Assembly: GCA_001662655.1 (NCBI GenBank)
Contig: KV460208.1
DNA length: 64,000 nucleotides
Strand: one strand, 5' to 3'
From: Pseudogymnoascus verrucosus
Taxonomy: Eukaryota
The position numbers and the translations under genes are program-made. This document shows, one piece after another, positions 7,720 to 11,993 of this stretch; positions within the stretch are counted from its first letter, which is position 1; each line of letters starts with the position of its first letter. Below the pieces are notes generated by a model, which was not told the DNA's origin, did no database searches, and saw only the letters and a program-made list of their open reading frames with translations.

Positions 7720-9350
7720 ATGGCTCCAGCCTCAATTATCGGTGATATCGATGGCGGTGATGAGGCAAGAACAGCCACCTACCACCCCGTCCAGCCAATA
7801 CTGACGTTTCCCAGAGCATGCTTGTAATCATTGACATTGATAGCATTCAAGCTCATGGTAAGTTGCTTAACCTTTGGAATGGTCTGGACATCTCTCATTG
7901 CAGTAGGTGTATCGGCATCGGACATTGCGAAACTCAAGCTGAATGGCATCCACACTGTGACTGTGAGCAACCACAATGTATCCTGTATCATTGCACAGCA
8001 TTCTTACTTTACCAGGGCGTTTTGTCTATGACAAGGAAGAAGATGGAACGAATCAAGGGACTCTCTGAGGTCAAAGTCCTCAAAATTAAAGAAGCTGCGG
8101 CGAAAATGATGGTAACATAGACACGAATATACGATACAGTTCACCAGCTAATATTTCTTGTAGCCGGACGCGAACGGCTTTGTGACTGCCACTGACTTGG
8201 CGGTCAAACGCAAGCAATGCATGAAGATAAGCACGGGAAGCAAGCAGCTTGACACGATTCTCCTTGGGTATGGCTATCGGATCATACTACGAAGACGTTG
8301 TTGATAAGCCATAGGGGTTTCGAGACTATGAGCATCAGTGAAATATATGGCGAATTCCGTAGGTTTCTTATTTCACAAAGCGTTGATGGGATACTGAATC
8401 GTCCAAGGTTGTGGAAAGACACAGATCTGTCACACTATGGCTGTCATGGCCCAGCTGCCAAGGGTAATAAAATGCCCTCCCATTGCTTCAACAGAGAACT
8501 TACTGAAGGAACCGTAGGAAATGGGAGGCGCAGAAGGCAAGGTTGCATGGATTGGTGAGTTTCTTGCCATATTGTCACAGGGATAGAACTGAGAATAAGC
8601 AGATACCGAAGGCACGTTCCGTCCAGAGCGAATTGCGCAGATTGCTGAGCGCTTTGGTGGTATGTCACCTGGGAAACCCTGCCCTGCACTGCTACTCAGT
8701 TCTCATCTCTTCTCTAGTTGATCCAGAGCAAGCTTGTGACAACATATGTGTGTCTCGAAGCCTCAACAGCGAGGTTCGTCAACGGAGCACCTTTGAGAGA
8801 GCCTATTCTAATACCATACAGCATCAGTATGAACTTCTGGATGTTCTCGCATTCAACTTCTGCAGTGGCGAATATCGGCTTCTGGTCATTGATAGTGTCA
8901 TGGCCCTCTTCCGAACCGACTACAGCGGCCGCGGCGAGCTTGCAGAGCGTCAGCAAGCCCTCGGCCAGTTCCTCAAGCGTCTTGCAGCTCTGGCCGAAGA
9001 GTTCAACGTTTGCGTCGTGATGGTAAGCTCGACAGCCATAGTTTCATGTGATTTAGACTGACAGCCCGGAGACAAACCAAGTTCAATCTGACCCTGGAGC
9101 CAGCGCTCTATTTTCCGGTACTGATGGGCGTAAACCTGTTGGCGGCCATGTTCTCGCGCATGCCTCGACGACAAGGGTTCTCCTTCGCAAAGGTCGCGGA
9201 GAAGAACGAGTTGCAAAGATCATTGATTCACCAAGTAAGCCCCATGTCCAAATGTACTATACCTGTATGCTGACTCCAGTAGACTGCCCTGAGCGCGAGG
9301 CTACATATATCATAACCAATGGAGGCATCAGTGACCCTGAGAAGGTGTAA
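7720..9350 (+). CDS. DMC1: Meiosis-specific recombinase Dmc1; ~12 short introns
   Basis: Spliced exons give IDSIQAHG, Walker A GEFRCGKTQ (Dmc1-type), [12 protein letters not shown], Walker [29 protein letters not shown]; stop at 9348-9350. Start at 7720 needs a GC-AG intron; 7818 is the alternative start. Confidence 0.93.
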
Positions 9351-9679: not shown

Positions 9680-10606
9680 ATGCCAAAAGCAATCGCTAGT
9701 ATTGGAGAATACTCCATCCTCCCAGTATCCATACCCGAGACGAGCGCATACGCCGTCAAGGCCGTACACAGCATCTACGTCCGCCCGCACGCACCTAAAA
9801 TCCCCACGGCCTCCGATTCACGAAGCCTTTTCCTCGTTAACATCCCAATCGACAGCACAGAGCAACATATCCGCTCAATATTTTCCTCGCTGCTTGGCGC
9901 TGGCAGGTTCGAGACTGTCATCTTCGAGAACGAGCGACAGAATGCTCCGCTTGTAGTAGAGACGAAGTTAGTACAGAGCGCGAAGAACAAGAAGAGGAAA
10001 CACGCGGATGCTGTCGATAATGCGGAGACGGCGGAAGATGCCTTGCCCAAGGCTTGGGATAGGAATTTGCACCGTAGTGGCAGCACGGCCGTCGCTGTTC
10101 TGGCGGATGCGCGGTGTGTGGAGCATGCGCTGAAGGCAATCAAGAAGGCGAATAAGAGCGGAGAGTACCCTGTCTGGGGCGCGGGTGTCAATGGTGTCCC
10201 TGCACTGGGATCGTCGAGATACATGGCACATCAGAAGTTGACATATCCCCCCAAGGATGAGCTGCAGTCTGCGGTGGACAACTTCATGGCGGAGTGGAAT
10301 AGGAAGGAAGAGGAAGCTGCGAGGTTGGCGAAGCGCCAGCGCAATGTTCCGGATGAAGATGGATTTATCACCGTTACTCGCGGTGGAAGGACCGGTCCCG
10401 CACGACAGCACGATGCGGATGAAGCTAGGAAGAAGGAGTTAGAGAAGGAGGAGGCGAAGAGGAAATCTATGGGCGACTTCTACCGCTTCCAGGGCCGCGA
10501 GAGGAGGAAGGAGGAGCAGGGAGAGCTGCTCAAGCGATTCGAGGAGGATAGGAAGAGGGTGGAGGGCATGAAGACCGAGAGGAGAGGTCGGTTCAGACCG
10601 GAATAG
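9680..10606 (+). CDS. RRP7: Ribosomal RNA-processing protein 7 (UTP-C subunit)
   Basis: 308-aa ORF; RSLFLVNIP RRM-like start and C-terminal PDEDGFITVTRGGR...DFYRFQ...RFRP motifs. Confidence 0.9.
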   Translation: MPKAIASIGEYSILPVSIPETSAYAVKAVHSIYVRPHAPKIPTASDSRSLFLVNIPIDSTEQHIRSIFSSLLGAGRFETVIFENERQNAPLVVETKLVQSAKNKKRKHADAVDNAETAEDALPKAWDRNLHRSGSTAVAVLADARCVEHALKAIKKANKSGEYPVWGAGVNGVPALGSSRYMAHQKLTYPPKDELQSAVDNFMAEWNRKEEEAARLAKRQRNVPDEDGFITVTRGGRTGPARQHDADEARKKELEKEEAKRKSMGDFYRFQGRERRKEEQGELLKRFEEDRKRVEGMKTERRGRFRPE

Positions 10607-10622
10607 GGGATGTGTACTTGAG

Positions 10623-10870
10623 GTATGGCAAATACCCTTTTGATTCTTCTTCCTTCGTTCGTGTCTATTATTACAATGGACAACACACGTGATGACTCAG
10701 CGGGGCCATAGAAGTCTGGGTTCGCTGATGGGCCGATACCCACGGGGAATCCTCACTATGACTAGAAACACCGCATAAAACAATCTTCTCAACTTTTCTG
10801 ATGTGTTCCATGCCGTCCTGGAATTCCCCTACTTCGCTTTTGTGTGCAAGACTCTAACTGGGGCATTTAG
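10623..10870 (+). other. Putative 248-nt intron in the RRP7 3' UTR (snoRNA host)
   Basis: AG|GTATGG donor 16 nt after the stop codon, CTAAC branch 10854-10858, TAG acceptor 10868-10870. Confidence 0.65.
10682..10807 (+). ncRNA. Candidate intronic box C/D snoRNA
   Basis: Box C GTGATGA 10689-10695, internal CTGA (D') 10725-10728, box D CTGA 10798-10801; terminal stem AACACA (10682-10687)/TGTGTT (10802-10807) in K-turn register. Confidence 0.7.
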
Positions 10871-11993
10871 ATATCAATCGCGCCAATGATTACTGGGATG
10901 GGCATCCTACTTCGATAACCCCCGACGGCCCATAGCAGGGCAGCCTGGCATGTTAGATATGGCTTCAGTCATGTCGTTATTGTGGTAGTAACGACACGTA
11001 ACCGTTCGTCCCGACCGGGCCAGAACATTCACCATGCACGGTTGAAACGAATCCGCCCGGCTAGCCTCCCGAACAACCCACCAGTACAGAGCTCAGGTCT
11101 ATCTAGCAACTAGCCCCACTACTCCCCTGTAAAGGGCGAGGCAGATATAAAGCGATGATTACTGGTTACGCGTCTACACCTAAACGGTGGCGGGGTGATT
11201 GAATGCTTAGAACGCCTCTGGCATCGCAACTTTCGGGGGGGTGAGAGGATGGAGGGGGGCGGGAAGGGGGGGAAGCGGTGCATGATATCTTGCTCGACCT
11301 AGGCTAATCTGATGGTATATGCTACCCACGAATACTATGGTCGTAGTATCTAGGCTTGCCGATAGGCAACTGTAAGACATGGTGTTTCCATTACCCTGAG
11401 GCGGAAGGTTGGAGGACGAGTGTTTGGGTAGATAGTTGTGTTGCACTTGTATATACCAGCTTTAAACTCCCCAGGCACAAATAATCACATCATCTCTCAC
11501 ATTCGTACTTCTTTCCATAGTGATATGTGACCATATATACCATGATACCAACTAGAATATAATAAGCATGATACCTCCGTTACCATCTTCAAGCACAACA
11601 CCATCCCATACCCACAGCATCACCCCGCCCCAAACCTGAAACATCTATCATTCCTCACATCATCCAAGGTGACCAACACAGTAATGTTAATACTTTTTAT
11701 TAATTTTTTGCTTCTAATAATTCTCCCCGCATCCACGCTAAAACGCGCTGTGGTGCTTGCTCGCCGTCCATTAGGTTGTTATCCACCATCGTCCAGCAAG
11801 TGATAATGCTCTCCATCCCATGCCACAGGCACGTCCAATAATTATTCCACCCACCCCCTCCCCCTCCCCTCTCTCCCCCCAAAAAATACCCAGCTTTTTC
11901 TCTATCAAACAAAAAACACCAGCAATGCCCGCAAAGCCAGCCAGCTTCCACCCCCCAAACTTTTCCCCCCGCTTTCTCATCACCCCAAACCCC

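Follow-up and report, generated by a model that had tools for sequence, protein, structure and literature searches.

A CD54-family box C/D snoRNA in a 3'UTR intron of RRP7 with a predicted U6 D' guide and a probable second, accessory U6-pairing arm

The window, that is, the whole 64-kb stretch of Pseudogymnoascus verrucosus DNA analyzed here, carries the gene RRP7, whose product matches the Pfam RRP7 C-terminal domain (E 8e-35) and the Rrp7 RRM-like domain (RRM_Rrp7, E 7e-22). The coding region is followed by an intron in the 3'UTR, and this intron contains a canonical box C/D snoRNA of 126 nt (positions 10682-10807, + strand), which starts 76 nt past the RRP7 stop codon. The upstream neighbor on the same strand (about 8400-9350) is a multi-intron gene of the Rad51 recombinase family, one exon of which (9066-9236) matches Pfam Rad51 with E 8e-22. 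A G-rich tract at 11228-11275, with runs of 6-8 G separated by short spacers, is found approximately 360 nt downstream of the intron and near the point (about 11065) where the compared relatives all cease to resemble the window. The coordinates of the features are collected in Table 1.

Table 1. Features of the RRP7 locus and of the intron-encoded snoRNA (MFE, minimum free energy; Nc CD54, Neurospora crassa CD54)
Feature	Position	Strand	Basis and remarks
RRP7 coding region, 308 aa, uninterrupted	9680-10606	+	ORF; stop TAG 10604-10606
3'UTR intron GT..AG, 248 nt	10623-10870	+	GTATGG 5' site, CTAAC branch 10854-10858, TAG end
5' half of terminal stem, AACACA	10682-10687	+	Pairs with TGTGTT; in MFE and centroid folds
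Box C, GTGATGA	10689-10695	+	Sequence
D' antisense element, GCGGGGCCAT	10700-10709	+	Identical in Nc CD54; includes segment 1
Degenerate D' box, TAGA (10709-10712) or AGAA (10710-10713)	10709-10713	+	CAGA in orthologues
Internal hairpin between D' and C', variable sequence	10713-10757	+	Fold
Divergent C' box candidate, ATGACTA	10758-10764	+	By eye, inferred; UGAC common to relatives
Conserved block, AAACACCGC	10766-10774	+	Common to Nc CD54; imposed in metagenome search
Conserved block, ACAATCTTCTCAA, including segment 2; proposed accessory arm	10780-10792	+	Identical in Nc CD54
Variable D-proximal bases, CTTTT	10793-10797	+	CTTGT or ATTGT in relatives, ACACT in N. crassa
Box D, CTGA	10798-10801	+	Invariant in alignment A1, not imposed by search
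3' half of terminal stem, TGTGTT	10802-10807	+	Sequence and fold; 6-bp stem

Box C, box D and the 6-bp terminal stem are all present in the RNA. An initial annotation of this DNA had placed a candidate snoRNA in an intron, and the boxes and stem, lying inside a GT..AG intron, bear that out as a real box C/D snoRNA. Rfam 15 gave no covariance-model match at the gathering score for the window, and a search of 10500-11000 gave none even at E up to 10; there was likewise no sign of an Rfam model for the N. crassa CD54 family. In the centroid fold, CCGC of the AAACACCGC block is paired with the GCGG (10700-10703) that begins the D' guide. The block might in this way close a helix and mask part of the guide, or it might be a third target-binding element; it has no complement in the 23-nt U6 core described below. 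In the relatives X15 and X17, the predicted G-U pair of 10720 with 10750 becomes A-U through G10720>A, and C10752>A breaks the terminal pair of the internal hairpin helix; as support for the hairpin these changes are weak.

The snoRNA encloses two segments, segment 1 (GGGGCCAT, 10702-10709) and segment 2 (AATCTTCTC, 10782-10790), both on the + strand. The reference for U6 was the 23-nt core quoted in the initial annotation; for N. crassa U6, the supplement of Liu 2009 (PMC2780460) gives only the stretch GAUUAGCAUGG. Segment 1 is a perfect Watson-Crick complement of U6 core positions 16-23, and segment 2 of positions 4-12, so that the AGC of positions 13-15 is left unpaired between the two sites. 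The proposal of two U6-antisense segments with sites 3 nt apart is thus confirmed in coordinates and in complementarity. Beyond segments 1 and 2, the 126-nt snoRNA has no further match to the U6 core of 6 nt or more. The predicted duplex energies are -15.8 kcal/mol for segment 1 (8 bp) and -12.0 kcal/mol for segment 2 (9 bp).

To determine the chance level, the 126-nt RNA was shuffled 200,000 times with its dinucleotide content preserved. Of these shuffles, 5,941 contained one or more matches of at least 8 nt and 1,438 contained a match of at least 9 nt; two separate matches, each of 8 nt or longer, were present in 32. Single 8-nt matches to the U6 core are frequent, at 18 per strand across the 64-kb window. 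The unusual feature is the pair of matches inside one snoRNA and not either match singly.

The RNA was compared by eye with N. crassa CD54 (EU780978) as given in supplementary file 1 of Liu 2009. That snoRNA is 125 nt in length, was cloned and was detected on a northern blot (Liu 2009; PMC2780460). It has the same order of blocks, namely UGAUGAC, GCGGGGCCAU, CAGA, a variable middle, UGAC-AAACACCGC, ACAAUCUUCUCAA, five variable bases and CUGA. Five blocks are therefore shared in order between RNAs of 126 and 125 nt, with GCGGGGCCAU, AAACACCGC and ACAAUCUUCUCAA identical and the same predicted D' target on U6. These likenesses identify the predicted snoRNA as the local orthologue of N. crassa CD54 and as a member of the Pezizomycotina family CD_54. 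The two RNAs differ in the D' box (UAGA or AGAA in the window, CAGA in N. crassa), in a spacer (CUCA versus CGCAC) and in the internal hairpin, the sequences of which are unrelated.

The sole target given to N. crassa CD54 by Liu 2009 (PMC2780460) is 26S-Um667, through a D pairing of 10 bp. Since the D-proximal bases of the window differ from those of N. crassa CD54, this pairing is lost here. According to Canzler 2018 (PMC5824354), CD_54 is present in all Pezizomycotina lineages, the D target of Liu is not conserved outside Neurospora, and a highly conserved element upstream of D' is predicted to pair with U6 (alignment position 70, N. crassa U6-55, ICI 1.43, mean -18.1 kcal/mol). That paper describes methylation analyses as missing for most fungi.

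Orthologues were sought in metagenome contigs by a scan anchored on box C, segment 1 and AACACCGC; it placed no condition on segment 2 or box D. The scan returned 23 loci, 10 of which, representing 4 distinct sequences (L003, L006, L007 and L020), have CTGA 24-25 nt past the last anchor. CAGA stands directly after GCGGGGCCAT in all 10 of these true loci and in N. crassa, and AATCTTCTC is found exactly 7 nt before box D in 10/10. The other 13 loci (L001, L002, L004, L009, L010, L013, L014, L015, L016, L018, L021, L022 and L023) were dropped as chance matches because they are without a box D at the expected distance, NAGA, segment 2 and an upstream Rrp7 match; the only Rrp7 hit among them was at L010 with E = 2.2, and none fell below E = 1. 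The orthologue sample comprises about four lineages, L003, L006 and L020 being mutually identical at 118-121/127 positions.

Identity of the window to the 4 orthologues is 59-68 of about 131 positions over the whole length and 9-13/44 in the internal region; in the ACAATCTTCTCAA block it is 12-13/13. In L007 the U6 match of segment 2 is extended to 10 nt. The gap from segment 2 to box D, consisting of AA (10791-10792) and five further bases, is 7 nt in 5/5 aligned sequences and in N. crassa CD54, and the five bases beside box D vary (Table 1). Among the differences listed for four closer relatives (X3, X4, X15 and X17), those within the snoRNA are only at 10699, 10720 and 10752, and none of those listed lies in either segment. 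The initial annotation had named conservation of both segments in orthologues as a check. Segment 2 is present in N. crassa CD54 (by eye) and in 4/4 distinct metagenome sequences; segment 1 is identical in N. crassa CD54 but was imposed by the search in the metagenome loci. TGATGA of box C is invariant in the orthologue alignment (A1), but it too was imposed by the search pattern. The UGAC of the C' candidate precedes AAACACC in the window, N. crassa CD54 and 4/4 orthologues, as read by eye; the MAFFT alignment A1 misplaces the C' region of the window. RNAalifold on A1 gave an uninformative consensus, with a covariation term of +2.64. When the snoRNA and the U6 core were cofolded, both helices were present together in the MFE structure for 3/5 sequences, the exceptions being L007 (without segment 1 pairing) and L020 (without segment 2 pairing). 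A CTGA at 10725-10728, within the internal hairpin, was considered as a D' box and dropped, as it is absent from 4/4 orthologues and from N. crassa CD54. The bases upstream of it (10714-10724) may form a lineage-specific extra guide.

Placement in the RRP7 transcript was examined in the same orthologues. In 4/4 distinct sequences the Rrp7 C-terminus lies approximately 250 nt upstream (tblastn with 400-nt flanks; 53-55% identity, E 1e-11 to 1e-13), a GTGAGT 5' splice site is found about 45-65 nt before box C, and a CTGAC or CTAAC branch site is found about 50-70 nt after box D. The linkage to Rrp7 and the intron signals in all four indicate that placement in a 3'UTR intron of RRP7 is conserved, and the snoRNA would be released from this intron. 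The gene of N. crassa CD54 is intergenic according to Liu 2009 (PMC2780460), whereas the window copy lies in the RRP7 intron; the 'intergenic' N. crassa gene probably also lies in the 3'UTR intron of RRP7. Three contigs of run X15, a relative whose label as RNA was guessed, concern the splicing of this intron. The first stops precisely where exon 1 does, the second passes from the end of exon 1 to 10869/10871 (read from a loose end, with no joint in the joint table), and the third is unspliced as far as 10813. Cover is lacking over 10814-10868 in this run, and run X17, with its RNA label also guessed, covers the whole stretch unspliced; neither of these last two observations was used as evidence. 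The distance from the RRP7 stop codon to the exon junction is 17 nt here and about 190 nt in the orthologues; the longer distance could expose the orthologue mRNAs to junction-dependent decay.

By sequence identity, segment 1 is the published invariant D' antisense element of CD_54, GCGGGGCCAT being identical to that of N. crassa CD54 and complementary over 8 nt to U6 core positions 16-23. The prediction of Canzler 2018 is already in print, and the U6-guide half of the present account is therefore not a discovery. The initial annotation is right in its caveat that no canonical CUGA directly adjoins either segment, yet segment 1 borders on a degenerate D' box. The D' element GCGGGGCCAU would pair with the AUGGCCCC stretch of U6, and in its sequence geometry the duplex agrees with the fifth-nucleotide rule. 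If the D' box is CAGA, the fifth base falls on the last G of GGGG and faces the first C of GGCCCC; if the box of the window is UAGA, it falls on the next G. The window reads T-AGA-A after the D' element, the C of CAGA being absent. Owing to the missing C, the D' box is either UAGA, which overlaps the last guide base, or AGAA, and the target may shift by one nucleotide. The predicted guide may also shrink to 7 bp with the D' box of the window. The degenerate D' box would place fibrillarin on the first or second C of the run, and CAGA together with the fifth-nucleotide rule would make the target the C60 equivalent (human numbering). We infer methylation of U6, and the exact nucleotide, from this geometry. 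The U6-55 of Canzler is one nucleotide off the CAGA-derived site in the numbering implied by the CD11 pairing of Liu.

According to Didychuk 2018, the ribose methylations of U6 cluster in the internal stem-loop, the human list being A47, A53, G54, C60, C62 and C63; C60 is methylated in mammals with a dedicated guide, MBII-166, and S. cerevisiae U6 is described as not methylated. No U6 methylation map for filamentous fungi was found in the literature consulted. MBII-166/HBII-166 would address the same U6 position, if a CAGA D' box and the fifth-nucleotide rule hold. It would be a functional analogue of the fungal RNA, homology not being detected (no Rfam family at E up to 10).

Segment 2 has a different character. 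Counting upstream from box D, the fifth base is C or A, for which U6 offers no partner; with this base unpaired and variable, segment 2 is unable to direct methylation. The sequence AAUCUUCUC, in the otherwise unused D-guide region and at a constant 7 nt from box D, would pair with GAGAAGAUU of U6, leaving 3 nt between this site and the first duplex downstream. We propose that it is a non-catalytic 'extra base-pairing' arm, which would dock the snoRNP on U6 and aid the short 8-bp guide. According to van Nues 2011, such elements stimulate methylation up to five-fold, go with the shortest guides, and are proposed to dock the snoRNP near structured targets. The criteria given there are conservation, location in the second guide region, no adjacency to box D, a length of 4-11 bp, and a target beside the methylation site. 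All of these sequence features are found in segment 2 (9-10 bp; 3 nt from the guide duplex), which probably acts as a helper arm. With both segments conserved, their spacing fixed and the D-proximal bases variable, the pattern favors a bipartite U6 binder with a catalytic and a helper arm. The suggestion of a bipartite guide that modifies or chaperones U6 is accordingly supported in so far as segment 1 is the CD_54 D' element and segment 2 is conserved at fixed spacing, and fails for segment 2 as a director of methylation.

The known rRNA guides with extra base-pairing (e.g. snR75; van Nues 2011) have rRNA as target, whereas the target predicted here is an snRNA; the word 'snRNA' has 0 occurrences in van Nues 2011. 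No published report of pairing between segment 2 and U6 was found in a search that lay outside the supplementary alignments of Canzler 2018, which may show segment 2, and neither sequence string is present in the Trichophyton rubrum ncRNA supplements. The pairing of segment 2 with U6 appears to be unreported. The family and its predicted U6 D' target are known, and the second arm is likely the modestly new feature.

Two other U6 guides bear comparison. Segment 2 spans U6 bases that we take to be those around the A47 equivalent paired by mgU6-47. The latter is the U6 guide of vertebrates and S. pombe (U6 A41; Didychuk 2018). The present RNA is not a member of that group: segment 2 has a 7-nt gap to box D, with the fifth base unpaired and variable. 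To be in the mgU6-47/SNORD7 register, on the last A of ACAGAGA, box D would be needed at 10792 and it stands at 10798, and there is no Rfam match. N. crassa CD11 (snR53 family) is likewise a box C/D RNA of Pezizomycotina with a predicted D' guide, in its case for U6-Am47 (N. crassa numbering). It differs in belonging to another family, in its canonical CUGA D' box, in its target nucleotide and in also guiding rRNA sites. The D' guide of CD11 pairs with the U6 stretch GAUUAGCAUGG (Liu 2009; PMC2780460), which overlaps the U6 sites of both CD54 arms. Because of this overlap, the two snoRNPs would act on U6 one after the other.

The reading we favor is that of a CD54-family snoRNA which is a D' methylation guide for U6 and in which segment 2 is an accessory arm; we give it a probability of roughly 0.65. 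Somewhat better than an even chance is given to a broader claim, in which the CD54 family would be the first described box C/D snoRNA with a conserved accessory arm on a spliceosomal snRNA. On that view U6 would be clamped on either side of the catalytic AGC triad, the catalytic guide pairing over 8 bp with AUGGCCCC and the non-catalytic arm over 9-10 bp with GAGAAGAUU. The arm would serve as a toehold for the short guide, with a further possible role in timing or restricting the folding of U6 while it passes through the nucleolus.

Segment 2 might instead be conserved for a reason other than U6, such as contacts with snoRNP proteins, folding or processing of the snoRNA, or a non-canonical target, its 9-nt match being a coincidence within an otherwise genuine CD54 U6 D' guide. 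AA (10791-10792) and AAACACCGC have no complement in the 23-nt U6 core, and U6 therefore does not fully explain the conservation of the region. The cofold of L020 without segment 2 and the number of shuffles with a single match of at least 9 nt point the same way, as does the remark of van Nues 2011 that conserved regions outside the guides serve in some cases to support the structure of the snoRNA. We nevertheless regard coincidence as unlikely: the match and the D' target site are 3 nt apart on one small RNA, precisely the position expected of an accessory element, two separate matches were rare in the shuffles, the match is longer in L007, and neither folding nor RNAalifold revealed a conserved partner for segment 2 within the snoRNA.

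The remaining alternatives concern what the U6 pairing is for, or whether it is relevant at all. Two-armed binding could mainly serve chaperoning or regulation and lead to little methylation or none; the RNA might, for example, hold the AGC-triad region open or retain U6 in the nucleolus. Of the 23 U6 core bases, 17 are covered by the two arms together, with only AGC left free between them, the D' box is degenerate and differs between lineages, and the guide is short (8 bp), all of which suit such a role. Against it, segment 1 is in canonical register with an NAGA D' box in 10/10 metagenome loci and N. crassa, the C60 equivalent is methylated by a dedicated mammalian guide (Didychuk 2018), and divergent C'/D' motifs are active in yeast (van Nues 2011); this role is judged very unlikely. 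Lower still in our estimate is the view that the relevant targets are rRNA or tRNA sites, addressed by the D guide or with the CTGA at 10725-10728 as D', and that the U6 match is incidental. The 10-bp 26S-Um667 target of Liu 2009 (PMC2780460) and the perfect CTGA at 10725, with at least 15 unassigned bases upstream, would fit it. However, the five D-adjacent bases differ among the orthologues, so that no canonical D target can be conserved; the target of Liu is confined to Neurospora according to Canzler 2018 (PMC5824354), the CTGA is shared neither with the four orthologues nor with N. crassa CD54, and the sole invariant box-adjacent element is GCGGGGCCAU.

The locus thus belongs to a known family with a known predicted target, and the published annotation of CD54 is corrected in two respects, in that its D target as given by Liu is not conserved and its 'intergenic' gene probably lies in a 3'UTR intron of RRP7. 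U6 is the catalytic RNA of the spliceosome, and through the placement in RRP7 its predicted modifier is tied to the expression of a gene for ribosome biogenesis. Accessory pairing, a principle shown for rRNA guides, would extend to snRNA targets if segment 2 does function as a helper arm. N. crassa and other model fungi would in that case provide a simple system for testing it, in which one snoRNA acts on one small target through two separable arms.
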